42,054 nucleotides of DNA from a virus (taxonomy: Duplodnaviria > Heunggongvirae > Uroviricota > Caudoviricetes), in IMG/VR virus record IMGVR_UViG_2609459819_000001, positions 1-42,054 of that record, one strand, 5' to 3'. The translations under genes were made by a program, and so were the position numbers. The notes below the pieces were generated by a model, which worked only from the letters and a program-made list of their open reading frames with translations, was not told where the DNA came from and ran no database searches. Below, piece by piece: positions 24,847 to 42,054 of the stretch. Numbering within the stretch: position 1 is the first letter of the stretch; each line of letters begins with the position of its first letter.

Positions 24847-24883
24847 TAGCCCAAGACAAAATCATAGGCTATCGCTATAGGCG

Positions 24884-25666: not shown

Positions 25667-25803
25667 AGCGCTTCTCCAGCATAAGTTTTCACGTAATTCT
25701 TCAGTATCCGGTAGTCCGTTAGCACAGAGCCGGGAAAGTGGTATAAGCGAAGCCGCTGCCAGCGAACGCGGAGGTGATCGGAAAAACAGGATTCAAATGT
25801 CAT
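25663..25803 (-). CDS. ylcG: YlcG-like small protein (46 aa)
   Basis: Manually translated [46 protein letters not shown]; ATGA overlaps with rusA stop and Q start. Confidence 0.5.
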
Positions 25804-26449: not shown

Positions 26450-26451
26450 GC

Positions 26452-26658
26452 TCACCCCCACGCCTTGCTTTGCCATACCCGGCTCGGGCGAGGCGCGTTG
26501 TCGCCTTCCGGCAATTGCACGCTGACGGTCCAGGTGATGTTGTCGCGATTCAGGCTGCGCTCTGTCTTTACACCGCGCGCCCGGTATTTCTCCACCAGCT
26601 CGTCGGCCTGTTCGGTGGTGCATTCGTGATGGTGGAACCAGGAAAATTTCATCGCCAT
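26452..26658 (-). CDS. Hypothetical small protein (NinE position)
   Basis: 68-aa ORF packed between ybcN and ybcO with overlapping stop/start. Confidence 0.3.
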   Translation of the reverse strand: MAMKFSWFHHHECTTEQADELVEKYRARGVKTERSLNRDNITWTVSVQLPEGDNAPRPSRVWQSKAWG

Positions 26659-27257: not shown

Positions 27258-27291
27258 GGTTTCTCTCCGTGGCGCAGTAGGTTACGGTTGT

Positions 27292-27540
27292 TCAGACCGT
27301 TGATTTCATATTATCAGAAGGTGGGGTTACCCGGTAGCCGAGACGGTGAATAAACTGCATAAAACCATTAGGAGTAAAGACCTCTTCATCATCCAGCAAA
27401 GGCCGCATAGAAACCATGCCATTGACGCGATAAATTAGATGCCTGCCCGATGAAGGAAAGCTAAACACCACGCAGCCGTCAGACCTTCTTACAATGTCAT
27501 ACCAGTTGTCATCTGACGTTTGCAAAGCTGAATCACTCAC
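27292..27540 (-). CDS. Hypothetical 82-aa protein, likely co-transcribed with the dinI-like gene
   Basis: GTG start with AGGGAG upstream; no terminator seen between it and dinI-like gene. Confidence 0.3.
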   Translation of the reverse strand: MSDSALQTSDDNWYDIVRRSDGCVVFSFPSSGRHLIYRVNGMVSMRPLLDDEEVFTPNGFMQFIHRLGYRVTPPSDNMKSTV

Positions 27541-27657
27541 ATTTATGTTCTCCCTTCGAGCGACTAACAGACGCGATTAAAGATTGTCGGCAGCAGCATC
27601 AGAGGGTTACGCAAATTGCGGTATTCTGATAAATGCGCGCCAGCCTTAAGCGCAATT

Positions 27658-27891
27658 CTAATAAAACCAGTCGTCAGCGCTTTCCCAGGTTTCCTGGAGG
27701 ATGGATTCGATTTTCTTTTTATCGTCCTTGTCTCCACCGAAAACACTTAACCCATCGGACCCGGCACGGCGGATTGTGAGCCTGCAATTGTCATAGTGAT
27801 CATTCAGGCGCTTAAGCAATTCTTTCTCCAGTGCTGGTACCGCGCCTTTAGGAAGTTCTTTCATGCGATCAATGGTTAATTCAACTTTCAT
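27658..27891 (-). CDS. dinI: DinI-family protein
   Basis: C-terminus KKIESILQETWESADDWFY matches DinI signature; start at second ATG with GGAGG 5 nt upstream; LexA box directly upstream. Confidence 0.75.
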   Translation of the reverse strand: MKVELTIDRMKELPKGAVPALEKELLKRLNDHYDNCRLTIRRAGSDGLSVFGGDKDDKKKIESILQETWESADDWFY

Positions 27892-27909
27892 AATGGCCTC
27901 CATTGCATG

Positions 27910-27929
27910 TACTGTGTTTTTATACAGTA
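27910..27929. promoter_or_regulatory. LexA (SOS) box TACTGTGTTTTTATACAGTA
   Basis: Perfect CTGT-N8-ACAG with flanking TA/TA, 19 nt upstream of dinI-like start codon, overlapping a TATACT -10-like hexamer. Confidence 0.7.
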
Positions 27930-27990
27930 TACCTATGCACGGAAATGATCAACGTTTTAAGAGCACAAATTGTTAATTTTCTGTCAGTAG

Positions 27991-28018
27991 AAAAAAAAAA
28001 AAACCCGCCGTAGCGGGT
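27991..28018 (-). terminator. Strong intrinsic terminator (minus strand)
   Basis: ACCCGC-tacg-GCGGGT stem followed by a 12-13 nt T run on the minus strand. Confidence 0.6.
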
Positions 28019-28222
28019 TGAATTAGCAATGTTTTATTAAGCCGCTATTTGTTTCTGCTGACAAAGCTCTGGCAAATTTGCACGCACCAGTGCTTCAGCA
28101 AACATCGCTGGCTCCGCCGTGAAATCGCGGGATTCTGTTTTGTATCTGCTAATTATGAACCAGCAGAAACTTTACTAAGATATGAAAATTAGCCTGCTTA
28201 AACAGCCTTTATGAAAGGTTAG

Positions 28223-28690
28223 TTAATCTTCAAAAAGCTTAAAAGCCAAGTAAGCAACACTTGCGACTGCTGCGACAGGTGCCACCGCTGTGATTATTGC
28301 CCCGGCGGCCATTCCTCCTCCAACAACCGAACCAACGGCTGCCATTCCGGATGAGATCGACGCAGCCCCTGCCGTTCCTGCTGCGCCTGCTAAAGATGCA
28401 ACACTGGCTCCAACTGTTCCAGCTGTTGCAGACATTATAGTAGCAGCTGACCCACCAGTAACGGCCGAAGCTGTAGTGGCTGCAACGCCAGCAGTTCCGA
28501 TCAATCCACCAGCACCGACAATTGTTGAAGATTTTATTTCTGAATTTGAATCAAGCACAGTTTTTCCAGGCGACCGAGAGTTCGAATCTTCTATAGTGTT
28601 CTCCCTAACGGCTTGTTCAAGGGCCTCGGCAAATACTCTCACTGCCTGCTGGGGTGATGAATGTTGCACAACTTCATTCTTAGTATCCAT
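28223..28690 (-). CDS. Gly/Ala-rich putative membrane-active protein
   Basis: 155-aa ORF; polar 55-aa N-terminus then about 100 aa of G/A/S/T/V-rich sequence with repeated small-xxx-small spacing; GGAGAG 6 nt upstream; own downstream terminator. Confidence 0.4.
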   Translation of the reverse strand: MDTKNEVVQHSSPQQAVRVFAEALEQAVRENTIEDSNSRSPGKTVLDSNSEIKSSTIVGAGGLIGTAGVAATTASAVTGGSAATIMSATAGTVGASVASLAGAAGTAGAASISSGMAAVGSVVGGGMAAGAIITAVAPVAAVASVAYLAFKLFED

Positions 28691-28818: not shown

Positions 28819-29295
28819 TCAGCTAAAATCAATACGCTCATGATTCATTCTGTCATGTACACATGGCTCACCGTCTTTCGGCTCAGGCCATTTGCGCTGT
28901 TTGTTAATCGCCAACTTCTCTACCATCGCTTGGGTAATCTGTTCATCACTGATACCGGCACGACGTTGCGCATCCCATAACAGGAATTGCATGTCAGCCC
29001 ATTCGGTAAGGTCACTTGGTTCAGCTGCCGCCTCGAGCGCTTCTTTGGAAAGGTGCTTCAGCGGACCAACTGGACCGACATCGCCGAAAGTAGCCTGTGA
29101 CCATGTAGCATGCTCACGGCGTACTTGCTCACGGGCCATCGACTCCAGAACTCCATCAATCACCTTCACAGCATCAGCCATTGCGTAGCCGAGATTACCG
29201 CCGTCGCTTTGTGCTGCTGCGTTGCTGAGTATTTCGCGTATCTGGTGCAGGCGATCGAGTGATACATGACCGTGCGCCGGGTGGTTAGTTGTCAT
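28819..29295 (-). CDS. DUF550-like protein (possible dATP/dGTP pyrophosphohydrolase domain)
   Basis: 158-aa ORF; family assignment from memory of similar prophage proteins, not verified. Confidence 0.35.
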   Translation of the reverse strand: MTTNHPAHGHVSLDRLHQIREILSNAAAQSDGGNLGYAMADAVKVIDGVLESMAREQVRREHATWSQATFGDVGPVGPLKHLSKEALEAAAEPSDLTEWADMQFLLWDAQRRAGISDEQITQAMVEKLAINKQRKWPEPKDGEPCVHDRMNHERIDFS

Positions 29296-29503: not shown

Positions 29504-30049
29504 TCATTCCCCCTTCACGCCAATGCCAGCGGCGCGGTCAATGCGTTCAATTTCTGCCAGAATAAGAGCGCCAGCTTTTACCAAGTCGCAGCGTGCTCCT
29601 GATTGCTTCCACCAATCAGGCGACCACGGCCAATGTGCTGGAGTGGAGAAACCTTGGTTGTGCGCATGAATTGCGTAACAAGCCGCTGCATCTGCTAATT
29701 CGCTATTTTGATATGCGTTGTCATGTTCAGGAGTCCATCCTTCAACCGACTGTTGCCGCTGACGTTCGGCTACCACATCCAGAATTGCTGGATTGAATGA
29801 ACGCGCCTCCAGTTCTGCTATGCGCTTCTCTGCGGCTTCCAGCTCATCCAGCAGCGCCAGCACGGTGGCGGGGTTGGCTGCGGCGATAAATGCAGCATCA
29901 CGCGCTTCGTTTTCACTGAATACCATGGCTATTTGCTCATGGTTCACGCCGTCAGTGGAGTAAATCTCATCGTCGAACTCAACAGCCCACCGGCCTTTCG
30001 TCGCCTTCTCCGCTGCTTCCCGTAATCCACGTTTGTCGATGTTGCTCAT
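29504..30049 (-). CDS. Ead/Ea22-like protein
   Basis: NPATVLALLDELEAAEKRIAELEAR motif recalled from Ead/Ea22-like prophage proteins. Confidence 0.4.
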   Translation of the reverse strand: MSNIDKRGLREAAEKATKGRWAVEFDDEIYSTDGVNHEQIAMVFSENEARDAAFIAAANPATVLALLDELEAAEKRIAELEARSFNPAILDVVAERQRQQSVEGWTPEHDNAYQNSELADAAACYAIHAHNQGFSTPAHWPWSPDWWKQSGARCDLVKAGALILAEIERIDRAAGIGVKGE

Positions 30050-30243
30050 TGGGCGGCCTCCTCCATGGCTGGGTCTGCTGGTAAAGTCATGTGCGGCACT
30101 TCAATCAGTTCTGCCCGAGCATCAGCCGTGTTAAGCGCCATTAATGCGACGATCCGCTTCTGCTCAGCATCCATTCGTAACGCTACTGTCTTGCCGTTCA
30201 TATTGAAGAACACCGCAACGTTTTTGATATCTTCGATTTTCAT
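30046..30243 (-). CDS. Hypothetical 65-aa protein
   Basis: Start at internal ATG 30243 (ATGA overlap with ren stop); GGGAGGG upstream. Confidence 0.3.
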   Translation of the reverse strand: MKIEDIKNVAVFFNMNGKTVALRMDAEQKRIVALMALNTADARAELIEVPHMTLPADPAMEEAAQ

Positions 30244-30584
30244 ACCCCTACCCTCCCCCAAACCATCAATACCCTTCTCATCGCCGCGCTGTTGCGGCAC
30301 TCCTGGCAGATCACGTTTGTGTCCGTCCGCTGAATTAACTTCGACTTACCCTGCTTCATGCCAGGTATCGTGTCAGGGGCGAAGCGCATTCCGTAGCTGG
30401 TCAGGCTGTAAAGGCGCTGGCCGTATTTTCCTTCGCAGCGGATCAGGCCGTCTGCCAGCAGCGTGCTCACCGTTCCGGATATCTTTTTGGTGTCCATGCC
30501 GATAAGCCCTGCCAGTTTGGCGTTGTTCAACCCTGGGTTGTTGCGCAGGGCTGCCAGCACCTGCTCACGGATTGTTATGTTCAT
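30240..30584 (-). CDS. ren: Ren-like protein
   Basis: C-terminus CQECRNSAAMRRVLMVWG resembles lambda Ren (ECRQSAAMKRVLAVYG) as recalled; located directly after P. Confidence 0.7.
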   Translation of the reverse strand: MNITIREQVLAALRNNPGLNNAKLAGLIGMDTKKISGTVSTLLADGLIRCEGKYGQRLYSLTSYGMRFAPDTIPGMKQGKSKLIQRTDTNVICQECRNSAAMRRVLMVWGRVGV

Positions 30585-30585
30585 G

Positions 30586-31275
30586 TCACACCATCCCGTT
30601 CGACTTGTTGCGGTTGTACTTGGCCAGCAGCAGCTGGATCGGCGTCGGCCCTTGCTCGGCAGCTGGTGCGGCAATAGCCCGGCGTACCGGCGGCACTGGC
30701 TTACCCTCGGTGACGCGCCTTTCCCACATGTCCAGCAGATCGCCTGCCTCGCGTGCCAGTTCACCATGCGTTAACTGGCGCTCGGTGCTGCGGTGGCGCA
30801 ATTCTACGCAAATGTGGTACATGACCGGCTGCGACCATGGAAATTGCTCGCTGGAGATGAATTCGAACGAGCGGTTACGCCAGTCCCAGTATTCGGCGAT
30901 CACCTGGTCAACGTTGACGCCCAGCGCGCCGCTGCTCTGCTTGCACCAGGCGACGAACTGGCCCGGCGACGGCAGGAATGGGCGCTCCTGGCGGCGGGCA
31001 ATGCGCATGCCGGCATCGACCTGAGCCATGGTGTGGATCCCGTTCTCCTGAAACGCCAGCAGCCACTGACGGCGGAATTCGTTCAGGTCTTCCTGGGTGC
31101 GGAAGTTCGCCATGCTGGCCGGGAACGCGGCGCGCAGCTCGTTGAACAGCTTGTTGAATACCTGCGCCACCTGCTCGACCGGCGCGCACTCCTGGTACTG
31201 CTCTGGCAGGTTATGGGCCATGCGGCTCATCTGCTCGCGGTCGCGGTTACGCATCTGCTCTGCAAGAGATTTCAT
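30586..31275 (-). CDS. P: Replication protein P (DnaB helicase loader), lambda P family
   Basis: MKSLAEQMRNRDREQM...FPAS..RRQWLLAFQENGI..RPFLPSPGQFVAWC closely parallels lambda P as recalled. Confidence 0.85.
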   Translation of the reverse strand: MKSLAEQMRNRDREQMSRMAHNLPEQYQECAPVEQVAQVFNKLFNELRAAFPASMANFRTQEDLNEFRRQWLLAFQENGIHTMAQVDAGMRIARRQERPFLPSPGQFVAWCKQSSGALGVNVDQVIAEYWDWRNRSFEFISSEQFPWSQPVMYHICVELRHRSTERQLTHGELAREAGDLLDMWERRVTEGKPVPPVRRAIAAPAAEQGPTPIQLLLAKYNRNKSNGMV

Positions 31276-32180
31276 CGGATCACCCCATAGGCCCAGTCAG
31301 TGTTGTTGAAGTCCAGATCTGGCTTGACAGCGCGCTGCTCACCTCCGGCGTTACGCTGCATTGTCAGCTTGTCCCACTGCTTACGCAGGCTTTCGGGACT
31401 CAGGATGTTGGTCTGCCAGAAGTGGTGTTTGCTAGCCCAGTCATACAGCGCGCAGATGTCCTGGTGCGACCGGTTGTCTATCTGGCGCATCAGGCGAACA
31501 GTGTTAGACCAGGAGGTCATGTCCGGGGCTTTGCAGGTTGGGTTAATCAGCTTCACCCTGGAGGAAATCCACTTAGCTGTCTCGAGGTCTTCAGCAGAGC
31601 CCCACTTCGCACCGGATGGTGTGTAGACCGCAGCTTCAGGATGAGTTGATAAAAATTTCTTCAGACGTGCGTCAGAGGATTCGTCAGAATTCTCTGACGA
31701 AGATCTTTTAATACTGTTCTTGTTCTTGTATTGGGTGTCTACCGTTTTCGGGAAGGTTATTCCTGATTTCGGGAAGGATTTTCCCGTTTTCGGGAATTTT
31801 CTTCCCGTTTCCGGTTTGTCTAAAATCCATGCTGAAAGGTCAGTGTTTACACCGACGATTTTCATCATGCCCTGCTTCTGTGAAAAGATGATTTTGCGTT
31901 CTGCGAGAGACTTAAGCGCGTCCGATACATGCGTATCGCTCAGGCCCGTAAGCTCGGCAATAACCGTATTTGTCACGCGGTCCTGTTTCTTGTTCCAGCC
32001 GTAGGTAAGCCAGATCACCGCCTCAAAACATTGCCATTCCCGGCCTGACAGTCTCAGGCGAGGCTTAAGCTGTTGGATCTCGTTAGCGACCTTGGTATAC
32101 CCGTTCGACAGGTCGGCCATACGACCTCCCGGTTGTTCGGTTTTATTTGGGAAATTGATTATTTCAGCGGTGTTTGACAT
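31272..32180 (-). CDS. O: Replication initiator O (lambda O family, N-terminal iteron-binding domain)
   Basis: Start MSNTAEIINFP (lambda O: MTNTAKILNF); contains iteron-encoded FPKTGKSFPKSGITFPKT linker. Confidence 0.8.
   Translation of the reverse strand: MSNTAEIINFPNKTEQPGGRMADLSNGYTKVANEIQQLKPRLRLSGREWQCFEAVIWLTYGWNKKQDRVTNTVIAELTGLSDTHVSDALKSLAERKIIFSQKQGMMKIVGVNTDLSAWILDKPETGRKFPKTGKSFPKSGITFPKTVDTQYKNKNSIKRSSSENSDESSDARLKKFLSTHPEAAVYTPSGAKWGSAEDLETAKWISSRVKLINPTCKAPDMTSWSNTVRLMRQIDNRSHQDICALYDWASKHHFWQTNILSPESLRKQWDKLTMQRNAGGEQRAVKPDLDFNNTDWAYGVIR
31740..31816. repeat. Origin iterons: four direct repeats (core TTTTCGGGAA) at 21-bp spacing, adjacent AT-rich segment
   Basis: Cores at 31745, 31766/7, 31787, 31807; each part of a TTCCCG..CGGGAA inverted repeat; inside the O gene as in lambda ori. 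Confidence 0.6.
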
Positions 32181-32189
32181 ACTGTTCTC

Positions 32190-32257
32190 CGCAATTACGC
32201 CCTGTTTTTGCACCTGAAAGCCGTTGGTGTTCGAGCACCGCGGCTTTCGCCATTTTT
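32190..32257 (+). ncRNA. oop-like antisense small RNA (predicted, about 70 nt)
   Basis: Plus-strand promoter TTGATT(32155-60)-17 nt-CATACT(32178-83) and plus-strand terminator GAAAGCCG..CGGCTTTC + TTTTT (32216-32257); antisense to the O start / cII-position gene 3' end. Confidence 0.35.
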
Positions 32258-32264
32258 GAACCGG

Positions 32265-32804
32265 TCATATAACCCCCAGCATAATCTGCACCATTTCCAT
32301 CAACGGACCGGTTAACCCAGGGTCAACGCGATACATCTCCACGATCCCCTCGCTCAACTCTTTCAGCTTCTGATGACGTGGCGCATCCATTGCGACAGCA
32401 ATCTTCGCTTCGCTGGTTTCCTTCCCCAGCCTTGCCAGACGAGCCATTACGTTGTCTTCTGGTAGCAGACGATTGCGGTATTCAATCGGCAGGACAGCGA
32501 GGATTGCCGGCGTCAGCTGGCGAACGTTTTCGCGGTACCGTTCGCTGTTGAAATGGTTATCCAGAAAGCGGAAAAGCTTCTGACGCTGTCGGCTGAGGTC
32601 ATCAGGGAAAGTGATCTCGTCTCCCCCTTGAGCCTGGTACTCTTCGATGATCAGAGCAGAAACGACATCCTGACCATCTACACCCGCCCACGCACGAACG
32701 GCATCGCGGATCTGGTCATGTTTATCTACCGAGACAGGTTGATTGCGATTTATCATCGCAGCCGTTTGATATCCGCTATTTTGATGAAGTGATAGTGACT
32801 GCAT
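32265..32804 (-). CDS. cII-position regulatory protein (YdaT-like?)
   Basis: 179-aa ORF directly downstream of cro-like gene; YdaT-like assignment by position (Rac ydaS-ydaT arrangement), low certainty. Confidence 0.35.
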   Translation of the reverse strand: MQSLSLHQNSGYQTAAMINRNQPVSVDKHDQIRDAVRAWAGVDGQDVVSALIIEEYQAQGGDEITFPDDLSRQRQKLFRFLDNHFNSERYRENVRQLTPAILAVLPIEYRNRLLPEDNVMARLARLGKETSEAKIAVAMDAPRHQKLKELSEGIVEMYRVDPGLTGPLMEMVQIMLGVI

Positions 32805-32806
32805 GG

Positions 32807-33040
32807 TTATGCCCTCGCTTCCTGAGCCGGTAATCCATCCGTAGGGTTGAGGTACAAATCAGGGCGTAACTCATGTGGAGTTACACCTGTAGCATTGAAA
32901 ATAGGAATGACACGGTTAGCCGGTACGAATCCATTGTCACGGTGACGCCAGTGACTGACCGTCATTGGGGATACATTGAGCTTTTCTGCTAAACGGGTTG
33001 CACCCCCTACGATGCATATTGCTTTATCAAGTGCTTTCAT
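32807..33040 (-). CDS. cro: Cro-like HTH regulator (YdaS/Cro family)
   Basis: 77 aa from internal ATG 33040 (MKALDKAICIVGGATRLAEKLNVSPMTVSHW...); GGAG 6 nt upstream; divergent from the repressor gene. Confidence 0.55.
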   Translation of the reverse strand: MKALDKAICIVGGATRLAEKLNVSPMTVSHWRHRDNGFVPANRVIPIFNATGVTPHELRPDLYLNPTDGLPAQEARA

Positions 33041-33143: not shown

Positions 33144-33539
33144 ATGAGAAAAAACACACACCAAACAGATAACCCGCAGGTTCGGCGGTTAAATGAAATC
33201 ATCGAGAAGAAGCGCATATCCAAAGCGGATATAGCGAGAATCTGTGGTGTGAGCGCACAATCAGTCAACAACTGGTTTGTCAGAGGAGCGATAGGAAAAA
33301 GCTCAGCAATAAAACTTGCCGATGCGCTAGGCGTAAGTCTTGAGTGGGTTCTAGGTCAGGACGTGGATGCTAAGAACGGTTTGAGACACGACGAACGGAG
33401 ACTGTTGGAACTCTATAATCAACTCCCAAACGAAGAAGAACAACAGAACATGTTGCGGATCGTATCTCTACGGTTGAAAGAACTCGATGAACTGTACGCC
33501 AAGTACATGGGACGGCGGATTAAGGGCGATGCCGAGTAA
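33144..33539 (+). CDS. Phage repressor, HTH XRE family (cI-like but without peptidase S24 domain)
   Basis: 131-aa ORF divergent from cro; HTH-like region ISKADIARICGVSAQSVNNW; no Ala-Gly / Ser-Lys autocleavage region visible. Confidence 0.6.
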   Translation: MRKNTHQTDNPQVRRLNEIIEKKRISKADIARICGVSAQSVNNWFVRGAIGKSSAIKLADALGVSLEWVLGQDVDAKNGLRHDERRLLELYNQLPNEEEQQNMLRIVSLRLKELDELYAKYMGRRIKGDAE

Positions 33540-33584
33540 CGAGCCGCTGGTGCCCAGGAAGCATGGGTAGACAGGGATAAAATC

Positions 33585-33683
33585 ATGAGAATTGGTATAG
33601 TGTTTCCGATCTTGGTGTTCATCGTAGCTATGGGGTTTATGGCATGGTTTATCATCGATGGATACGCAACACCCAGCGGCTAA
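33585..33683 (+). CDS. 32-aa hydrophobic peptide (MRIGIVFPILVFIVAMGFMAWFIIDGYATPSG)
   Basis: Manually translated; AGGGA 7 nt upstream; single TM helix; immediately downstream of repressor. Confidence 0.25.
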   Translation: MRIGIVFPILVFIVAMGFMAWFIIDGYATPSG

Positions 33684-33795
33684 TTCGCAGTTCCACCGGT
33701 TGATAGCTTATAACAAATTATAGTAGTTGAAGGTGAAACAGATCGGGTATCTTCTGATATAACAATGAAACATTTTGTCTATAGATAGCATAGCT

Positions 33796-33816
33796 TGCAA
33801 CTAGATTTCAGTTGCA
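33796..33816. promoter_or_regulatory. Inverted repeat TGCAACT-N7-AGTTGCA upstream of hicA (candidate HicB operator)
   Basis: Perfect 7-bp arms, about 28 nt upstream of hicA start. Confidence 0.3.
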
Positions 33817-33843
33817 CTACCTTTAACAGAGGATGTATCCTTC

Positions 33844-34098
33844 GTGGGAAGAAAGGAAAAGCTAAAGTCAAAGTTAGACGGCTTACCCAAAAATTTTACT
33901 TGGGATGAGTTCGTTACTCTCATGAACCAGTATGGCTTCAAGCTTTTGAATGCTAAACGAGGTTCTGGTCGTAAATTTTACAACCAACGTGTTGATAGAT
34001 TGGTCATTTTTCATGAGCCTCATCCTGAAAACACCCTCAAAAGGTACGTCTTGGAAGAAGTTAAACAGCTGTTAGATGAGATTGATGATCATGAATAA
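33844..34098 (+). CDS. hicA: HicA-family toxin (YcfA-like mRNA interferase)
   Basis: 84-aa ORF with GF..L...KRGSGRKF...FHEPHP pattern resembling HicA; directly upstream of a HicB-like gene; GTG start. Confidence 0.5.
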   Translation: MGRKEKLKSKLDGLPKNFTWDEFVTLMNQYGFKLLNAKRGSGRKFYNQRVDRLVIFHEPHPENTLKRYVLEEVKQLLDEIDDHE

Positions 34099-34102
34099 CT
34101 TG

Positions 34103-34549
34103 ATGAAATACAAAGGTTACTATGGTAGCTCCAGCATTTCATTTGAAGATGGGGTGATGCATGGAAAACTCGAATGTATAAATGATCTCGTCACTTATGA
34201 GGGTGCAACGGTTGCAGAACTCCGTGCAGCCTTTGAGGAGGCCGTGGACGATTACCTCTCCACTTGTGAAGAGATAGGAAAATCTCCAGATAAGACAATG
34301 AGTGGTTCGTTTAACATCCGGATAGGTGAATCCCTGCATAAAAAAGCATATTTAGCTGCTAAAGCTAAGAATATGACTTTAAACGATTATGTAAAACAGG
34401 CTGTCAGTGAGTCAGTTAATGGGAAAAAAGAGGTTCACTACCACTTTGAAAAACCGAGGGATGTTAGAGAAGTTACTTTCTTCTCATCCCGTAGACGTAC
34501 AGAAGAGACCTATTGGGAAGTTTCAGTAGACAACGGAGTGCCACATTGA
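34103..34549 (+). CDS. hicB: HicB-family antitoxin (HicB fold + C-terminal RHH-like region)
   Basis: MKYKGYYGSSSISFEDGVMHGKLECINDLVTYEGATVAELRAAFEEAVDDYLSTCEEIGKSP...FNIRIGESLHKKA matches the HicB pattern. Confidence 0.65.
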   Translation: MKYKGYYGSSSISFEDGVMHGKLECINDLVTYEGATVAELRAAFEEAVDDYLSTCEEIGKSPDKTMSGSFNIRIGESLHKKAYLAAKAKNMTLNDYVKQAVSESVNGKKEVHYHFEKPRDVREVTFFSSRRRTEETYWEVSVDNGVPH

Positions 34550-34974
34550 TGCTTGATAAAATTCGCTTTAAGGGATTTGATCTCGAGGGTTCTTCCCTTT
34601 TTATCGACGACAGTGATAATTCTGAAGGCGGAAAATATAGCTTAAAATTTTCTGAGCATCACGTTGTTCCTCAAAAAGATGAAGATGGAAATTGGCTCTT
34701 TATTGAAGTTAAGCCATCGATAACTGGTTTCCCTCGCGATAAAAAAGATTTTGATGATGGTGAGGATGTATTGTTCAAGGCAGAGGCTACCTTGACACTA
34801 ACATTTGAGTGTGACCTCGATGAAGAAGTAACTGAGGATTTTTATAATGAAAATGCTTGGTTTTTTGAAAATTATGTATATGTATGTACAAAAACAGTTT
34901 TTGAAAATATGTTCAAAAACACAGTGTTAGATACTATAACGTTACCTTGGTCCCCAACATCATCTAGAAAATAA
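34549..34974 (+). CDS. Acidic hypothetical protein (141 aa) co-oriented with hicAB
   Basis: ATG overlaps hicB stop (TGATG); about 30 Asp/Glu vs about 14 Lys/Arg; AT-rich DNA; followed by terminator. Confidence 0.4.
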   Translation: MLDKIRFKGFDLEGSSLFIDDSDNSEGGKYSLKFSEHHVVPQKDEDGNWLFIEVKPSITGFPRDKKDFDDGEDVLFKAEATLTLTFECDLDEEVTEDFYNENAWFFENYVYVCTKTVFENMFKNTVLDTITLPWSPTSSRK

Positions 34975-34981
34975 TCTCCAA

Positions 34982-35009
34982 CCCGGCCACCGCGCCGGGG
35001 TTTCTTTTG
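34982..35009 (+). terminator. Intrinsic terminator ending the repressor/hicAB transcription unit
   Basis: CCCGGC-caccgc-GCCGGG stem followed by TTTCTTTTG. Confidence 0.5.
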
Positions 35010-35010
35010 C

Positions 35011-35205
35011 CTACCCTTTTCGCACTTCCTCAGCAGCAAACCTGAACACCTGTCGCCAAAAATCGTTCTGCTCAATATCCCCCAGCGACTCCAGCATTGA
35101 AATGATCGCCTCAGTAGTGGGCGCGTCTCCATGTGATATCAGATTCAGCGTCGCTCTACCTACCGCCTGACATACATCGTTGTAACCCACGTAGAACTTT
35201 TCCAT
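35011..35205 (-). CDS. Hypothetical 64-aa protein
   Basis: ORF with GAGGGTGGG upstream of ATG; convergent with hicAB unit. Confidence 0.3.
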   Translation of the reverse strand: MEKFYVGYNDVCQAVGRATLNLISHGDAPTTEAIISMLESLGDIEQNDFWRQVFRFAAEEVRKG

Positions 35206-35317
35206 ATCCCACCCTCATCGATTTTTTTATAACCACAAAATAGACCACAAAACATACTACTCGTGCCAACGAGCGCAACCAACTAAACTTTTTGTTTATA
35301 TAAAAATGCTCATTATG

Positions 35318-35346
35318 TTGACACGCAAATAAACATTGTGTTTAAT
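35318..35346 (+). promoter_or_regulatory. pL-like early promoter (TTGACA-17 nt-TTTAAT) with embedded operator TAAACATTGTGTTTA
   Basis: Near-identical architecture to pR; operator 35330-35344 in spacer/-10; second partial site CATTATGTTGA overlaps the -35. Confidence 0.5.
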
Positions 35347-35589
35347 TGCTCCATCAACACAACCACCAAAGCAGGACGCCCACGAAGAAGCCGTCCGGGG
35401 CATTCGAAGACCGGAATGAGGTGGTGAGATTAACGCGCAGTAGGTTTGAAACGTTCCGCCAGCCTGGCGACAAGGGCAAAGCACAGAGTGAGCTTCGCGG
35501 TGGTGAATTGCAGAGTTAAAGCGCTCAACCGTGAAGATCAGCGCCGCAGCAACACCAGCGAAGTTCACTCAGAAAAACTGGAGTACATC

Positions 35590-35796
35590 ATGGTTCATCA
35601 GCACTACGGTACACAGACAGTAAACCGCGGCGCAGTTCAGCCGGGGATGCTTGTAAAACACAAAGACTCAACCTGGACCGCATCTGCTAACGCACGCGGT
35701 CGCCTGTATCTTCACCGTGGCATCGAACGTACCTACACCAAAGATTTGCTGGTTGAGGTTTATCTAAACGGTTTAGGACATGGCCTTAGCCATTAA
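35590..35796 (+). CDS. Hypothetical 68-aa protein (first gene of pL-like operon)
   Basis: ATG with GGAG 6 nt upstream; preceded by about 240-nt leader. Confidence 0.3.
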   Translation: MVHQHYGTQTVNRGAVQPGMLVKHKDSTWTASANARGRLYLHRGIERTYTKDLLVEVYLNGLGHGLSH

Positions 35797-35807
35797 CGGA
35801 GTGAGTT

Positions 35808-35969
35808 ATGCAGGAGAAAAAATGCGCGTACTGCCGCAAGCCGATCAAGCAAGGGAAGGAAGTTAAAAACGAACTGCTCTTTATCCACGGCACGCAGTTG
35901 AAACGCGAGCAACGTGATTACTGTTCAGTACGTTGCGCTTCGTTCGACCAGATGGCCCACGAAGCATAA
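35808..35969 (+). CDS. Small zinc-ribbon protein (53 aa; CxxC...CxxxC)
   Basis: Manually translated MQEKKCAYCRKPIKQGKEV...DYCSVRCASFDQMAHEA; GGAG 6 nt upstream; occupies the position of Rac ydaE upstream of recE. Confidence 0.3.
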   Translation: MQEKKCAYCRKPIKQGKEVKNELLFIHGTQLKREQRDYCSVRCASFDQMAHEA

Positions 35970-36107
35970 CGAAAACCCCGCGCAAGGCGGGATTCACGTC
36001 CGGTGCCACCGACCAAAGTTACACCGGAATTTATACCAAACCAAAAAACATCCAATGGGCGCTATCTCTGGCCCGGGGATTCTAACACTCAAAAAAGAGG
36101 ATCTCAC

Positions 36108-39017
36108 ATGGAATTTTTCCATCTGATAAAAGCCAGTCAGAAGTCTGGCAAGAAAGATGCAGTGATTTGGTTCACTGCGAAAAGTGTAGCGCGCGCCAAT
36201 CTCCAACTCGATGTGGCACTGGAAGAAGCCGGAATTGAAGAAACTGGCCGCGGTAAAGATTATGCCAAACCAATCCGCACCGATTTCCCGGTATATGACG
36301 ACCTGCCGGAAGAAGGCGCAGTGGATTACACCTGGTGCAAACGCTACGAACTGCAGAACGATGACCGCACCTGGCTGCCAAAAGTCACAGCTGAAAACTC
36401 TGACGAGAAAACGGCTCAGACCGTTGATAGTCACATAACTACTGAGTCAACGCTGCCAGAAACCGCTGGCATCACGCTGGACGAACACGACGACGACTCA
36501 ACCCTCTACCCGGTAGTGCAGATGCCGTTTCGTAAGCAACTGCTTTCCCAGTTCACCGCCGACGAACTGCGCCACCACGTAACCCGCGAAGAGTACGAAG
36601 CTATCGGCGCGCTGGAGATGGACACTGATAACAGTTACGTCCAGAACTTGCTGTTAGCTGCTGAGAACTGCCCGGACGTGAAGGGTTACGACACCAAAGA
36701 CCTGTGGCGCTACACCGATGCCATTCGCAAAGTGTTCAGCCAGGACAAGCGTCACGAACTCGCGCTGGTACTCCGTTTCACCAGAATGTGGGCGGCGACT
36801 GATTACATTGACCGTGGCATCCTGGCGCGTGAATGGGCTGCCGGTAATCACATCAGTAGTGTTCAGCGTACTGATTCCGGAACCAATGCCAACGGCGGTT
36901 ACGTCACTGACCGTGGACCTGATGCATACCATACCCTTGACACTCTCGATTTAGAGATTGCATGTGCCCTTCTGCCTATGGACTTCAACCACTTCGAGAT
37001 CCCGGGCAGCATTCTTCGTCGCGCTAAAGAAATCGTGACCAAAAAAGAAGAACCGTGGAAATCATGGAGCAGCATTCTGCGCAATCAACCCGGCGTTCTT
37101 GGCGTTAACCGCACAGCTATTTTTAACCTGATACGTATCGCGCCGGAAAATATTCATCTAACTCCTGTCGCTCACCTGGAGTTTGTTAACCGGACCATGA
37201 CTGCTGCGTTTAATGCTGCTGTTGAGTTATTGCCATTGCATGAAGCTGAGCCCGCAACACAGGAAATTCCCCAACCTGAAGGTAAGGAGTCTCCGCGCAA
37301 ATCCTTCTGCACTCACGAAGAGAACCTGCAACGCGTGCGTGAAGAAGGAGCACGCCGCCGCGCAGAGGAAGCGGCAGCACAACCGCAGAAAGTCGAACAA
37401 GAACTGGTTAAAAATGTCGGCAACGGAATATTCGACGTTACGGCTTTGCTGCAGAACTCAGCAACTCATGGCACGAAAAAGGCTACGGAGACCACCAGCA
37501 ATGTGCAGGTTCAAGAAACTGTCAGTGATGAAAAACAAGCTGGTGATGAAGTACAGCCAGGCGAAAGCAGTCTGGAGTCTGGTGAAGAGTCAGATACCAG
37601 CCAGAAGGACGATGTAGACCAGAATACGGATTCTGTCGCCAAAAATAGCGATTCTGTAAGCCAAACCGAACCAGTTGCAGCACAAACCGAGCCAGAAGCG
37701 CAATCTGACGAACCAGCTGTTGTTTATCCCGCTTATTTCGAGCCAGGCCGCTATGAAGGGCTGCCAAACGAGGTTTACCACGCCGCCAACGGCATCAGCT
37801 CAACCCAGGTGAAAGATGCGCGCGTTTCGCTGATGTACTTCAATGCGCGCCACGTAGAGAAAACCATCGTCAAAGAGCGCTCAGCGGTGCTGGACATGGG
37901 CAACTTGGTGCATGCGCTGGCGTTGCAGCCTGAACTACTGGACGCAGAATTCAGCGTTGAACCGGTGATCCCTGAAGGCGCATTCACAACGGCCGCGACC
38001 CTGCGCGCCTTTATCGATGAGCACAATGCCAGCCTGCCGGCGCTGCTGTCTGCCGACGACATCAAGGTGTTACTGGAAGAGTACAACGCCACCCTGCCGC
38101 CGCAGGTTCCGCTTGGCGCTAACCTGGAAGAAACGGCACAGAACTATATGGCGCTGCCAGCTGACTTCCAGCGTATTGATGGTGACCAGAAGCAGACGGC
38201 GACGGCAATGAAGGAATGCATTAAAGAGTACAACGCCACCCTGCCGCCGCCGGTTAAAACCAGCGGCAGCCGTGACGCGCTGCTGGAGCAGTTGGCAATC
38301 ATCAACCCTGACCTTGTGGCTCAGGAAGCACAGAAACCGGCACCACTGAAAGTGTCCGGTACCAAAGCAGACATGATCCAGGCCGTGAAGGCAGTCAAAC
38401 CAGATGCCGTATTTGCCGACGAACTGCTGGATGCCTGGCGCGATAACCCGGAAGGAAAAGTGCTGGTCACCCGCCAGCAGCTGAGCACCGCGCTGAATAT
38501 TCAAAAAGCGCTTCTGGCACACCCGACCGCCGGCATGCTGCTGACCCACCCTAGCCGAGCCGTTGAGGTGAGCTACTTTGGTTTTGACGAGGAGACGGGC
38601 TTGGAAGTTCGTGTGCGCCCTGACCTTGAGATCGACCTGGATGGCGTGCGTATAGGTGCAGACCTGAAAACCATCAGCATGTGGAATGTTAAGCAGGAAA
38701 GCCTGCGCGCCAGGCTACACCGGGAAATTATTGAACGTGATTATCACCTGAGCGCGGCTATGTACTGCGAAACCGCAGCGCTGGATCAGTTCTTCTGGAT
38801 TTTCGTCAACAAAGACGAGAACTACCACTGGATCGCCATCATCGAGGCATCCGCTGAACTACTGGAGCTGGGTATGCTCGAGTACCGCAAAGCGATGCGC
38901 AATATCGCAACCGGATTCGACACAGGTGAATGGCCAGCGCCAATCACTGCTGACTACACCGACGAACTGAACGACTTCGACCTGCGCCGCCTTGAAGCGC
39001 TGCGTACTCAGGCATAA
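36108..39017 (+). CDS. recE: RecE-like exonuclease VIII (C-terminal PD-(D/E)xK nuclease domain)
   Basis: 969 aa from ATG 36108 (AAGAGG upstream); acidic N-terminal region; C-terminal RPDLEIDLDGVRIGADLKT with Asp and D-x-K motifs; followed by recT-like gene. Confidence 0.55.
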   Translation: MEFFHLIKASQKSGKKDAVIWFTAKSVARANLQLDVALEEAGIEETGRGKDYAKPIRTDFPVYDDLPEEGAVDYTWCKRYELQNDDRTWLPKVTAENSDEKTAQTVDSHITTESTLPETAGITLDEHDDDSTLYPVVQMPFRKQLLSQFTADELRHHVTREEYEAIGALEMDTDNSYVQNLLLAAENCPDVKGYDTKDLWRYTDAIRKVFSQDKRHELALVLRFTRMWAATDYIDRGILAREWAAGNHISSVQRTDSGTNANGGYVTDRGPDAYHTLDTLDLEIACALLPMDFNHFEIPGSILRRAKEIVTKKEEPWKSWSSILRNQPGVLGVNRTAIFNLIRIAPENIHLTPVAHLEFVNRTMTAAFNAAVELLPLHEAEPATQEIPQPEGKESPRKSFCTHEENLQRVREEGARRRAEEAAAQPQKVEQELVKNVGNGIFDVTALLQNSATHGTKKATETTSNVQVQETVSDEKQAGDEVQPGESSLESGEESDTSQKDDVDQNTDSVAKNSDSVSQTEPVAAQTEPEAQSDEPAVVYPAYFEPGRYEGLPNEVYHAANGISSTQVKDARVSLMYFNARHVEKTIVKERSAVLDMGNLVHALALQPELLDAEFSVEPVIPEGAFTTAATLRAFIDEHNASLPALLSADDIKVLLEEYNATLPPQVPLGANLEETAQNYMALPADFQRIDGDQKQTATAMKECIKEYNATLPPPVKTSGSRDALLEQLAIINPDLVAQEAQKPAPLKVSGTKADMIQAVKAVKPDAVFADELLDAWRDNPEGKVLVTRQQLSTALNIQKALLAHPTAGMLLTHPSRAVEVSYFGFDEETGLEVRVRPDLEIDLDGVRIGADLKTISMWNVKQESLRARLHREIIERDYHLSAAMYCETAALDQFFWIFVNKDENYHWIAIIEASAELLELGMLEYRKAMRNIATGFDTGEWPAPITADYTDELNDFDLRRLEALRTQA

Positions 39018-39028
39018 GGGGAATGATG

Positions 39029-40141
39029 ATGGAAAACACGAATATCGTAACCGCTGAACAGCAGACTCCAAACACGATCTCAGCCAGCAATGCCATTTTC
39101 AACGTGCAGGCTTTAACCCAGCTTCAGTCTGTCGCCGGGTTGATGGCACAGGCAGCCGTAACGGTGCCTGAGCACCTCCGCGGCAATCCGGCAGACTGCA
39201 TGGCCATCATCATGCAGGCGATGCAGTGGGGTATGAACCCTTACGCCGTGGCGCAAAAGACGCACCTGGTTAACGGTGTCCTGGGATACGAAGCGCAACT
39301 GGTTAATGCGGTGATCTCCAGCTCAAACGCCATCGTTGGCCGCTTTCACTATGAGTACGAGGGCGACTGGTCGAAATGTGCCAGCAGCCGCGAGATAACC
39401 GTTAAAAAGCCTGCGAAAGGTGGCGGGACGTACGACAAGAAAGAAATGGTACGCGGTTGGGAAAGTGCTGATGAACAAGGACTGTCGGTACGGGTAGGTG
39501 CCGTTATTCGCGGTGAAAGTGATATCACCTGGGGAGAGCCTGTTTTCCTCTCCAGCGTAATCACACGTAATTCTCCACTTTGGGTATCAAACCCGAAACA
39601 GCAGATCGCTTATCTGGCACTCAAATACTGGGCGCGCCTATATTGCCCTGCAGTTGTTCTTGGTGTGTACACCCCTGATGAGATTGAACAGCGCACAGAA
39701 AAAGAGATCAACCCAACGCCGCAACGCGTTAGCCTGGCTGATATCTCAGGTGACACCGTCACAACCACGCAAAGCGCACAGGAATCGTCGGTAAATGTCG
39801 ACTCTCTTGCCGATGATTTCCGCGAACGCATCGAATCTGCTCAGGACGTGGATAGCGCCAAATCGCTGCGTGCCGACATTGAAACGGCGAAAGCTACGCT
39901 GGGATCCGCACTATTCACCGAGCTGAAAAACAAAGCCGTAAAGCGTTATTACCTAGTGGATGCACGCAACAAGGTTGAGGAGGCTATTAAATCCCTGCCC
40001 CAGCCCGACGAGCCGCATGCAGCCGAACGGTTCGCTGAAGCCGAGCGCATGCTTGCATCTTCAAAGCGTCACTTAGGCGATGAACTGCACGATCAATTCA
40101 GCATCACCCTGGCGGATATGAAACCGGAATACGTGGCCTGA
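39029..40141 (+). CDS. recT: RecT/Bet-family single-strand annealing protein
   Basis: AIIMQAMQWGMNPYAVAQKTHLV and NPKQQIAYLALKYWARLYCP parallel lambda Bet/RecT motifs; start ambiguous among three consecutive ATGs (39023/39026/39029). Confidence 0.6.
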   Translation: MENTNIVTAEQQTPNTISASNAIFNVQALTQLQSVAGLMAQAAVTVPEHLRGNPADCMAIIMQAMQWGMNPYAVAQKTHLVNGVLGYEAQLVNAVISSSNAIVGRFHYEYEGDWSKCASSREITVKKPAKGGGTYDKKEMVRGWESADEQGLSVRVGAVIRGESDITWGEPVFLSSVITRNSPLWVSNPKQQIAYLALKYWARLYCPAVVLGVYTPDEIEQRTEKEINPTPQRVSLADISGDTVTTTQSAQESSVNVDSLADDFRERIESAQDVDSAKSLRADIETAKATLGSALFTELKNKAVKRYYLVDARNKVEEAIKSLPQPDEPHAAERFAEAERMLASSKRHLGDELHDQFSITLADMKPEYVA

Positions 40142-40179
40142 CGAGACCGGGAGGGGTAACCCTCCCTCAAGGAGATTAT

Positions 40180-40422
40180 ATGCGACTGATCAATCGAGGA
40201 AGTAAGCAATCACCTTTAGCTCGCCAAGCATGCGACATCGCGCTGGCAGCTCACTTGCAAACATATGGCGACTATGGGCGAAGCAAGATGAAAGAGACTT
40301 ATACGGTGAAGGTTGAAGGCGTGAAAGTCTGGGTGGAGGTGGTGAACCGAAAGGCGAGCTACGTGGCCACAGCGATGACCGGCATGCGCCGTCTCCGCTC
40401 CCTGCCCGGGCAGGTTGGTTGA
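40180..40422 (+). CDS. Hypothetical 80-aa protein
   Basis: AGGAG 7 nt upstream of ATG; position of Rac ralR/ydaC. Confidence 0.3.
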   Translation: MRLINRGSKQSPLARQACDIALAAHLQTYGDYGRSKMKETYTVKVEGVKVWVEVVNRKASYVATAMTGMRRLRSLPGQVG

Positions 40423-40463
40423 AAAAGATTTTGAATGGCCCGAACGGGCAACTGGAGAGAGCT

Positions 40464-40661
40464 ATGGATGATATTTTGGTAACGTCAGACCTGACCAGTC
40501 GCTACAAAATTTCACGCAAAACCCTTTGGTCATGGCAAAGTGCAGACACAATGCCTCGGGGCTTCGTATGCCCGTTCCCACCCCCTGACTGGCCCGGCAA
40601 CCCTAACCGCTGGCGCTCTGAGTCAATCAAAGAGTGGGAGGATAAAAAGAAGATAAATTAA
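40464..40661 (+). CDS. xis: Excisionase / AlpA-family DNA-binding protein
   Basis: 65 aa from ATG 40464 (GGAGAG upstream); [19 protein letters not shown] pattern; 4-nt convergent overlap with integrase stop. Confidence 0.45.
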
Positions 40662-41851
40662 CTGAAGGGCTCTCCGATGATCTCTTCAAGATGGCTCTGC
40701 CAAACGCGGAGCCAGTGTTTCTGATCATCGATATAGTCATGAAGGTTGTAATGCGCCATAACCCCCACCATCTGATGCCCGAGCAGCTTTTCAATTACGT
40801 GCGGCGGGCAACCTAACTCAGAGAGATTTGTGGCTATCGTCCGCCTCATATCATGAAGCGACCACTCTGCCATACCTGTTCCATTCCAAATAGAACGGGC
40901 GTAATTGGATGCCACAGGTGAATGAACGGGCGAATCTTTGATCCCGCCATCAATTTTACGTTGTGAAGTCACCAGGTGATTGGTGTTTATTTTCTTGAGG
41001 TGATTTCTGACCAGGTTAACGGCGGCGTCTGAGAGTCCCCTTCTAATATGTACCCGAGTTTTATAACTGCCCGCAGGCACGACCCACTCATTATCATCCA
41101 ATCGAAACCATGATCTCTCACTAAGTCGAATCTCAGCCGTACGGCATCCGGTAAGCATAATAAATTTCACCAGGAAAACGGACTCTATCGACATATGGCT
41201 TTTCAACCACTGATAGATTTTGCGCAGATCGTCATCGTCCATCCTGCGAGTTCTCTTTTTAGGCTTTTGCCCGACATCAGATGGCAGTAATCCCTCGAGT
41301 GGGTTTGAGGCGATCACACTTCTGTTAACGCAGAACCTAAACGCCCGTTTGCACAGCGAAAGCATGTAATGAGCCATCACCCTGCTTTCTATAGAATCGA
41401 AGACGTTGATCCAGTGCATTTTCGCTGTGTTATCGACTTTGACATTCTTCATCGGTTCGGCGATATGTTTCTCAAACACCTGGCGATAGTAATCGACTTT
41501 AACTAGCCCGTTAGCGATACAGTGCCTTTCAATCCAGTAATTGAACGCTTCGGCAACGGACATCGCTTCCTGTCGGGTCTGCTTATCCAGCTTCACCTGC
41601 TCTCGCGGATCCAGTCCCTCAGTTAACCAGTTTCTGAATTGTTGGCGACGCTCTCTTGCCTGGGTGATACTCATTGCAGGATAATCACCAACATTGAGTT
41701 TTACCGCTTTACCGGCCCAGCGATACCGATAGAAAAATGATATTTTTCCGGCCTGGCTGATTCTGGCGTTGAGCCCGTGCGAATCAGAAATAATCTCGAT
41801 ATCATCTCTTTTCTTGCCGAGCGCCTTCCTGAGCTTTGTGTCGGTGATCAT
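40658..41851 (-). CDS. int: Tyrosine integrase (P4-like, N-terminal arm-binding domain)
   Basis: C-terminal [28 protein letters not shown]...MAHY catalytic region; N-terminal [14 protein letters not shown]...[23 protein letters not shown]; start taken at internal ATG 41851. Confidence 0.8.
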
Positions 41852-41856
41852 TGAAT

Positions 41857-41898
41857 GGGTACACATTTTTGTTTTTGGGTACACAAAAGTGTACACAA
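41857..41898. repeat. Three direct repeats G(G/T)GTACACA immediately upstream of integrase start
   Basis: Copies at 41857-41865, 41878-41886, 41889-41897 (GTGTACAC is palindromic). Confidence 0.35.
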
Positions 41899-42054
41899 AG
41901 TTGCCCACTCAAAGCTACACGCAATGTAACACTAGTTCGCAGAGTGTTATGATTTACATCCTTGAAAGCCTGCTGGATAAGGGTTTAGCGTAACAGAACG
42001 TTTTTACGCGGAATTGTTCGTAATATGCCAAATGACAATTTAAGAAAGTGTTCT

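Follow-up and report, generated by a model that had tools for sequence, protein, structure and literature searches.

The window analysed here, a 42,054-nucleotide stretch of a tailed-virus record (IMG/VR IMGVR_UViG_2609459819_000001), carries towards its right end an adjacent pair of genes encoding a RecE-like exonuclease and a RecT/Bet-like single-strand annealing protein, set among regulatory and integration genes of phage type (Table 1). An earlier note, made from the letters alone, had marked positions 36108-40141 as a Rac-like RecE/RecT module; that interval runs exactly from the recE start to the recT stop. The naming of the two proteins holds up well: both open reading frames (ORFs) are intact and full length, with Pfam matches to Exonuc_VIII and RecT, respectively, and PHROG profile matches to phrog_607 (exonuclease) and phrog_561 (E 2.6e-165). 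Neither Rfam nor tRNA scans returned anything over the full length of the window.

Table 1. Features of the recE-recT region and its flanks (window positions; aa, residues of the encoded protein; AF2, AlphaFold2).
Feature	Position	Strand	Details
Short prophage repressor	33144..33539	+	131 aa, HTH only; HTH_3 and Phage_CI_repr; heads leftward operon with recE and recT
kil, septation inhibitor	35590..35796	+	phrog_294 Kil, E 2.8e-35; PF27398 KilR (precomputed annotation)
ydaE-family small zinc-binding protein	35808..35969	+	phrog_1520; PF27493 YdaE; 50% identical to Rac YdaE
recE-like exonuclease gene	36108..39017	+	969 aa; start at ATG 36108
RecE N-terminal Exonuc_VIII domain	36114..36650	+	aa 3-181; PF06630, E 7.9e-22, profile positions 5-203 of 203
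RecE acidic low-complexity linker	37233..37742	+	aa 376-545; net charge -21; E/Q/S/T-rich
RecE C-terminal PD-(D/E)XK nuclease domain	37743..39014	+	H602, D839, D852, K854
Helical insertion in RecE nuclease domain	37983..38462	+	aa 626-785
recT-like single-strand annealing protein gene	39023..40141	+	372 aa from 39023; 370 aa from 39029
RecT C-terminal helical domain	39797..40135	+	aa 259-371; AF2 pLDDT 85-90, helices only
DUF4060 gene	40180..40422	+	PF13269, E 1.5e-34
xis, excisionase	40464..40661	+	phrog_1553; 100% identical to phi80 Xis
int, tyrosine integrase	40658..41908	-	Arm-DNA-bind_3 and Phage_integrase domains
Terminator-like hairpin ending leftward operon	40692..40714	+	pattern scan; within int 3' end
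phi80-type attP core	42035..42054	.	at contig end

A ribosome-binding site (AAGAGGA) lies 7 nt 5' of the recE start codon, and a longer product begun at the alternative GTG 36003 is unlikely. The protein combines the two hallmarks of the RecE family, an N-terminal PF06630 region covering the full profile and a C-terminal nuclease domain of the form His...Asp...Asp-x-Lys, for which Pfam also returns a PDDEXK/DUF3799 match (E 6e-10). The four catalytic residues, invariant in 20 homologues, align with H652, D748, D759 and K761 of Rac RecE and with PDB 3H4R, which is the C-terminal domain of RecE from the Rac prophage of E. coli K-12; the Rac motif YHVQDAFY reads YHLSAAMY here, with serine in place of glutamine. 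The acidic linker (AF2 pLDDT about 25-30) is the variable portion of recE, and positions 37219-37725 are unmatched in the GPEC60 prophage, which is elsewhere 96-99% identical. Within the nuclease domain the catalytic His and Asp stand 237 aa apart, where Rac RecE has only 96 aa between them, and the helical insertion contains three exact E(E/H)YNA(S/T)LP repeats together with two looser units. This insertion is modelled as all helical (pLDDT 85-94) and is 87% conserved in Salmonella (Gifsy-type) RecE.

On the same strand as recE, recT begins 5-11 nt past the recE stop codon. Residues 39-228 of its product match the Pfam RecT family (PF03837, E 2.5e-36) over profile positions 2-195 of 198, a near-full-length match with the partner exonuclease gene adjacent, and a disordered linker (aa 223-256) precedes a C-terminal helical domain that is conserved across 26 homologues, its terminal DMKPEY motif included. 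Rac RecT gave no BLASTP match, and comparing it with the RecT alignment by hhalign gave no significant one; neither method detected similarity to phi80 Rec. Searches of PDB sequences with the RecT alignment profile returned no relative, nor did phmmer. Since pairwise similarity to Rac RecT and phi80 Rec is lacking, the assignment to the family depends on the profile matches in Pfam and PHROG. Homologous clusters of RecT number more than 5000, frequently labelled 'enterohemolysin' or RecT.

Pfam gave only sub-threshold noise (E up to 10) for the insertion and middle region of RecE and for the C-terminus of RecT, the best of it a SAP match on the insertion (E 0.053). AlphaFold2 was run on shallow alignments (20 sequences for RecE and 26 for RecT, all at least 70% identical), giving pLDDT of about 30 for the nuclease core in the RecE C-terminal region and 78-85 for the RecT core; Foldseek searches of the two models against the PDB yielded nothing below E 0.1, and the models serve here for domain segmentation alone.

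The genes on either side carry their own affinities. The repressor, in which Pfam detects no peptidase domain, is 27% identical to Gifsy-2 GtgR. The block kil-ydaE-recE-recT opens with kil, whose product has 97% identity with Kil of mEp237 and 34% with KilR of Rac. The DUF4060 gene occupies the interval between recT and xis (in phi80, that between damL and xis), and its product is identical to that of mEp237, 92% identical to that of phi80 and 71% identical to STM1007 of Gifsy-2. The hairpin beyond xis matches the position of the annotated phi80 leftward terminator. The earlier note had placed int in Rac-like order; instead it stands on the opposite strand and is transcribed towards xis, a convergent arrangement also annotated in phi80, where int has its own promoter. 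Int is 100% identical to the integrases of phi80 and mEp237, and the integration module is of phi80 type throughout, with Int and Xis both 100% and the DNA 99.5-99.9% identical, attP core included; the core was located by carrying over the positions annotated in phi80 (24623-24639) and mEp237 (23324-23340), in alignments of 99.5% and 98.8% identity. An 82-aa ORF follows dinI in the window; since BLASTP does not match it to GftA, the antirepressor of Gifsy-2, an antirepressor role for it would be a guess from position.

Elsewhere in the window, the genes for virion, lysis, replication and regulation form a set without interruptions. The replication and late-control genes are lambda-like, as had been proposed: homologues of O, P, Ren and Q occur in lambda order at 30-48% identity (39%, 48%, 30% and 37%, respectively, by BLASTP for Q), O having a Phage_rep_O domain and 21-bp-spaced iterons at 31742-31814, internal to its gene, P a Phage_lambda_P match and the Ren-like protein a match to phrog_142. 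A reading of Q as not lambda-like, taken from its Pfam 'Antiterm' match, was dropped upon the BLASTP result, in which DLP12 QuuD was unmatched. The proposed DLP12-like nin block is likewise borne out, ybcO, rusA and ylcG being 94%, 96% and 65% identical to their DLP12 counterparts. The virion module encodes a contractile tail, with a DUF3383 sheath, a KPP10_Orf10 tube and baseplate J. Its tail relatives among the best 30 of 1084 tblastn matches are Omnitron, SEN34-type, Felix-O1-like and PAK_P/KPP10-like phages, with neither Mu nor SfV among them; the earlier assignment to a contractile-tail myovirus thus stands without its 'Mu-like' qualifier, and by sequence the tail is of SEN34/Omnitron type. 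The window itself is a draft-assembly contig, cut within a tail-fibre gene.

How far the likeness to Rac extends bears on whether Rac biochemistry and recombineering behaviour could be transferred directly to this pair, as they could if it were an orthologue of Rac recET. We consider such orthology improbable. The 'Rac-like' label is sound as to protein family and gene order: the same two Pfam families, the same catalytic residues and the same kil-ydaE-recE-recT succession, with xis further on, are found in Rac, and RecE aligns with its Rac counterpart at E 4e-48. It fails as to close sequence relationship, however, because RecE is only 24% identical and has a nuclease-domain insertion of roughly 140 aa that Rac RecE lacks, while Rac RecT (269 aa) shows no detectable pairwise similarity, is about 100 aa shorter and has no C-terminal helical domain. 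Rac also carries racC, ralR/ralA, rcbA and a co-directional intR, in the one-strand order kilR-ydaE-racC-recE-recT-ralR-rcbA-xisR-intR, whereas no equivalents of racC, ralR/ralA or rcbA lie at the corresponding window positions, where the DUF4060 gene is found instead, and the phi80-type int is inverted. Much closer relatives of both proteins are those of Gifsy and mEp237.

Two further readings concern function. Both ORFs are full length with their catalytic residues intact, their products are 98.5-100% identical to those of mEp237, near-identical copies occur in many genomes, and the virion, lysis, replication and regulatory genes of the window are uninterrupted; it is therefore very improbable that recE and recT are functionless genes decaying within a cryptic prophage, even though a draft contig cut within its tail-fibre gene cannot establish a whole prophage. 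We give still less credence to the idea that the product of the recT-like gene is a virulence factor, an 'enterohemolysin' of Ehly1 type. Several close homologues, Klebsiella phage annotations among them, do bear that name, which on RecT homologues is a historical carry-over; the present protein, however, matches nearly the whole RecT profile, its gene is coupled 3' of the RecE nuclease gene, at the place where a lambdoid early operon has its recombination genes, and the Pfam search revealed no signal peptide or toxin domain.

Very probably, then, recE-recT is a recombination module that belongs to a temperate lambdoid phage, integrated in E. coli where phi80 attaches, and it acts by RecET steps; the enzymatic activities, the regulation and any partner binding by the extra domains we infer from family knowledge and from the genetics of the Gifsy orthologues. 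The pair would belong to a leftward early operon comprising repressor, hicAB, kil, ydaE, recE, recT, DUF4060 and xis, silent in the lysogen and transcribed upon derepression. RecE would act as a PD-(D/E)XK 5'-to-3' double-strand DNA exonuclease whose resection leaves 3' single-stranded tails, and RecT, an annealing protein of the RecT/Red-beta family whose gene follows recE and is translationally coupled to it, would coat the single strand and anneal complementary DNA, leading to RecA-independent end repair and phage recombination. A passage in PMC3121763 that cites Lemire 2008 reports that Gifsy orthologues of the pair promote recombination when derepressed, and describes the Gifsy recET genes as repressed in lysogens and as suppressing recombination defects when activated.

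The two conserved, confidently helical additions, which found no structural or sequence match in Foldseek searches against the PDB or in Pfam, invite a more adventurous suggestion: the helical-repeat insertion of RecE (HeH/SAP-like) and the C-terminal domain of RecT might together form a dedicated device for partner recognition or DNA tethering, and confer different recombineering properties. We regard this as doubtful; if true, it would be something unseen in Rac and lambda Red, the systems that have been studied.

The gene pair itself is already known, being annotated in mEp237 and in dozens of E. coli genomes. Of 5426 complete E. coli genomes, about 60 (about 1%) carry the recE-recT segment intact at a nucleotide identity of at least 95%, and there PGAP names its genes RecE family and RecT family. 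This frequency, together with near-identity to the mEp237 pair, indicates that the module is real but ordinary, and its candidacy as a recombineering pair, raised in the earlier note, is plausible but not new. We know of no study that benchmarks RecET of the Gifsy/mEp237 lineage for recombineering; that lineage is native to E. coli, and recombineering use of it is the sole, modest practical point to emerge.

The window was also put forward as a record of module exchange. No single phage record covers it whole; mEp237 best covers the early half and Omnitron the virion half, so that near-identity to one described phage holds for the recE-recT module, in mEp237, and not for the window. Sequence comparison instead resolves it into a lambdoid mosaic of phi80/mEp237 early arm, mEp234 immunity region and SEN34/Omnitron virion genes. 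The same early and late combination sits in the kch/yciI interval of E. coli GPEC60-12-649 (94-99% identity over aligned blocks), the two halves are contiguous also in WEM25, CH468 and AR_0119, and in two other assemblies the same RecE adjoins int and then kch-cls-yciU-opp. Lambdoid mosaicism in SEN34-type 'lambda-like myoviruses' has already been described (PMC5261728). Several E. coli genomes have the combination where phi80 attaches, and SEN34 is published; the mosaic reading holds but the mosaicism is routine, and the window adds a further example with little wider weight.

Set beside individual phages, the components diverge. In SEN34, a Salmonella phage (Brunovirus), lambdoid early genes are likewise joined to a DUF3383-sheath virion module, and the virion half is 85% identical, although SEN34 was absent among the matches to the recE-recT segment; the virion half of Citrobacter phage Omnitron is 92-96% identical, with otherwise only a few short early-region fragments in common. 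phi80 shares the attP core, convergent int and xis, and a replication region with iterons inside the O-like gene (gp15, 100% identical to the O-like protein here; gp14, 98.7% to the P-like), but for recombination it uses a lambda-Exo-like nuclease and another RecT-like protein, with Gam and Agt. mEp237 (NC_019704) is closest over the early-left arm, with DNA 98.8% identical from kil to attP, gp30 identical to RecT and gp31 98.5% identical to RecE, and it has the same DUF4060 gene, xis, inverted int and phi80-type attP; this identity, like the family membership, catalytic residues and gene coupling, can be read from the sequence directly. mEp237 itself is a siphovirus, however, with N15/lambda-like head and tail genes and another immunity region, whereas the window combines the matching arm with a myovirus virion module and an mEp234-type immunity region. 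Gifsy-2 RecE and RecT are 61% and 71% identical and of equal length, and the recET genes of Gifsy-1 and Gifsy-2 share both the nuclease-domain insertion and the C-terminal RecT domain; the Gifsy phages, from Salmonella Typhimurium, also have a DUF4060-like gene followed by xis, a short repressor of non-cleavable type and a LexA box by dinI. They differ in an integrase of another type, encoded on the same strand as xis, and in a replication loader that is DnaC-like rather than P-like. These comparisons place the pair in the Gifsy/mEp237 RecET lineage and not in that of Rac, from which it is set apart by a helical stretch of about 140-160 aa inserted in the nuclease domain of RecE and by about 110 aa that form a further helical domain at the C-terminus of RecT.

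The interval flagged in the earlier note, 36108-40141, runs exactly from the recE start to the recT stop, and the gene pair that it holds is real; our computational analysis indicates that the pair is almost certainly functional, with a predicted working mode that joins a RecE-type resection nuclease to a RecT-type annealase. The first recT ATG lies 5 nt past the recE stop codon, and the 969-aa RecE start is the one used by the described coliphage mEp237, PGAP and the collection gene calls alike, a 1004-aa RecE from GTG 36003 being simply a mechanical extension.

Features of the window, followed by its segments with their closest phage relatives
Feature	Position	Strand	Remarks
82-aa ORF after dinI	27292-27540	-	phrog_340
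dinI homologue	27658-27903	-	
155-aa ORF	28223-28690	-	
dATP/dGTP pyrophosphohydrolase-family gene	28819-29295	-	PF04447, E 7.6e-41
iterons	31742-31814		21-bp-spaced
cro-like and cII-like genes	32265-33040	-	YdaS and YdaT families
prophage repressor, 131 aa	33144-33539	+	HTH-only, without peptidase domain
hicA/hicB	33844-34549	+	3' of repressor gene
64-aa ORF	35011-35205	-	
kil	35590-35796	+	5' of recE
ydaE-family gene	35808-35969	+	5' of recE
recE-like ORF, 969 aa	ATG 36108 to 39017	+	AAGAGGA upstream of ATG, right spacing
recT-like ORF, 370-372 aa	three consecutive ATGs 39023-39031, end 40141	+	
DUF4060 gene	40180-40422	+	3' of recT
xis	40464-40661	+	3' of DUF4060
int	40658-41908	-	strand opposite to recET
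terminator-like hairpin	40692-40714		3' of xis
virion genes	792-21758		Citrobacter phage Omnitron 92-96%; Salmonella phage SEN34 85%
lysis genes	~21977-23791		phages SKA5 and 118970_sal3, 92.5%
Q and nin region	24745-28099		mEp237, 82-95%
replication, cII-like, cro-like	29983-32891		mEp237, 98.9%
immunity region with hicAB	~33505-35012		mEp234 immunity fragment, 99.7%
early-left arm	34981-42054		mEp237, 96.6%

The pair falls within the Gifsy/mEp237 branch of RecET, which was known before. RecT is 100% identical to mEp237 gp30 and RecE 98.5% identical to gp31, Kil and the DUF4060 protein match their mEp237 counterparts at 97% and 100%, Int and Xis are 100% identical to those of both mEp237 and phi80, and nucleotide identity to mEp237 is 98.8% over the stretch between 35930 and the contig end. 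RecE and RecT share 61% and 71% identity with those of the Salmonella prophage Gifsy-2; RecE shares 24% (E 4e-48) with that of Rac, the E. coli K-12 prophage, and RecT has no significant match to Rac RecT or phi80 Rec. The description of the pair as Rac-like survives as to protein family and gene order, but not in the sense of close sequence relationship. Of 5426 complete E. coli genomes, 112 carry the recET segment (at least 80% covered in 58 of the 112, at least 95% identical in 61), chromosomal every time and with its genes labelled RecE family and RecT family, and strain TC24 has it at 99.8% identity; the RecT type spans more than 5000 90%-identity clusters across Enterobacterales, many with the legacy name 'enterohemolysin'. 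A described phage and many genomes thus already contain the pair under its correct annotation.

In RecE (phrog_607), Pfam places an Exonuc_VIII domain at the N terminus (E 7.9e-22) and a PDDEXK/DUF3799 domain at the C terminus (E 6e-10). Alignment with Rac RecE and the structure of its C-terminal domain (PDB 3H4R) equates H602, D839, D852 and K854 with Rac H652, D748, D759 and K761, and these catalytic residues are invariant in 20 homologues. The catalytic His stands 237 residues from the first Asp, as against 96 in Rac RecE, and an insertion at about aa 626-785 carries an E(E/H)YNA(S/T)LP repeat in three exact copies, alongside two looser units; the insertion is predicted confidently as helices (pLDDT 85-94) in a model that is otherwise poor. 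Because of that poor model, which returned no Foldseek match, and a Pfam hit to SAP at only E 0.053, we give the insertion no fold name; Salmonella RecE proteins keep it at 87% identity. An acidic low-complexity linker (aa 376-545, net charge -21) is the sole recE stretch unmatched in the prophage of E. coli GPEC60-12-649, the rest being 96-99% identical.

RecT (phrog_561) covers the whole Pfam RecT profile with aa 39-228 (E 2.5e-36); in the predicted structure a disordered linker (aa 223-256) leads to a helical domain (aa 259-371, pLDDT 85-90) which, with its terminal DMKPEY motif, is kept in 26 of 26 aligned homologues. The C-terminal domain of lambda Red-beta binds its partner exonuclease and host SSB, and by analogy that of RecT may play a similar role. 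Both this extra domain and the RecE helical insertion are lineage-wide features, not specific to the window.

DUF4060 lies directly 5' of xis in the window, mEp237, phi80 and Gifsy-2 (70-100% identity), whatever recombination module precedes, which suggests that in function the gene goes with excision and not with recET. The proposed Rac-like order of int is not supported: int runs towards xis in exactly the convergent arrangement annotated in phi80, whose int has its own promoter.

The window is the complete 42,054-bp contig JNMJ01000036.1 (assembly GCA_000700285.1), so that each end is a break in the assembly: on the left, a minus-strand tail-fibre gene that starts near 1013 is truncated at position 1, and on the right the contig stops at a phi80-type attP core (42035-42054). 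The rightward and late genes occupy the minus strand between about 1000 and 33040, and the leftward early operon is made up of the plus-strand genes at 33144-40661. In the related E. coli prophage, the tail-fibre region goes on with a DNA invertase and with alternative genes for tail fibres and their assembly, a repeat structure at which assemblies are likely to break.

The lambda-like and DLP12-like assignments made from the sequence were borne out: O, with its iterons, is a Phage_rep_O protein (100% to phi80 gp15, 39% to lambda O), P a Phage_lambda_P protein (98.7% to phi80 gp14, 48% to lambda P), Ren falls in phrog_142 (30% to lambda Ren), Q aligns full length with lambda Q (37%) and has no match to DLP12 QuuD, and the nin block resembles that of DLP12 (ybcO 94%, rusA 96%, ylcG 65%). 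The tail is contractile, with sheath, tube, baseplate J and gpV-like spike, and a Mu-like type is not supported, the sheath being DUF3383 and the tube KPP10_Orf10; relatives among the matches listed (best 30 of 1084) are Omnitron (99.5%), SEN34-type, Felix-O1-like and PAK_P/KPP10-like phages. No single phage record covers the whole window. E. coli GPEC60-12-649 carries the same overall combination between kch and yciI (94-99% identity in aligned blocks, most of the window), and the window's two halves are contiguous in WEM25, CH468 and AR_0119 too. The mosaic is routine, and SEN34 itself was described as a 'lambda-like genome with myovirus morphology', defining a new lambda cluster (PMC5261728). 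The nin and replication regions are separated by a variable stretch, mostly unmatched in mEp237 and in the GPEC60 prophage, in which the dATP/dGTP pyrophosphohydrolase-family gene and the 155-aa ORF lie; the latter has no Pfam or PHROG match.

In the immunity region, the hicA/hicB toxin-antitoxin pair, its DNA 99.7% identical to mEp234 immunity fragment EF120460, holds the position of rexAB in lambda. The 64-aa ORF between the hicAB/unknown-gene block and kil, which three independent assemblies and RefSeq all annotate as a gene, sits on the opposite strand in the slot of the opposite-strand exclusion gene sieB of Rac and lambda. The cro-like and cII-like products share 37% and 34% identity with YdaS and YdaT of Rac, so that, kil and ydaE aside, it is the regulatory switch and not the recombination proteins that has a detectable Rac relationship.

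The sole CTGT-N8-ACAG LexA-box-like site in the window, CTGTGTTTTTATACAG (27912-27927), lies directly 5' of the dinI homologue; since 28 of 100 shuffled sequences contain one such site by chance, it is suggestive through its location alone. BLASTP of the 82-aa protein against GftA gave no match. The layout of box, dinI homologue, 82-aa ORF and repressor is the same as in the LexA-controlled dinI and antirepressor induction system of Gifsy (PMC3121763), in which leftward-operon derepression was reported by recE-lacZ fusions; the Gifsy recET orthologues are silenced in lysogens and, once activated, suppress recombination defects (PMC3121763).
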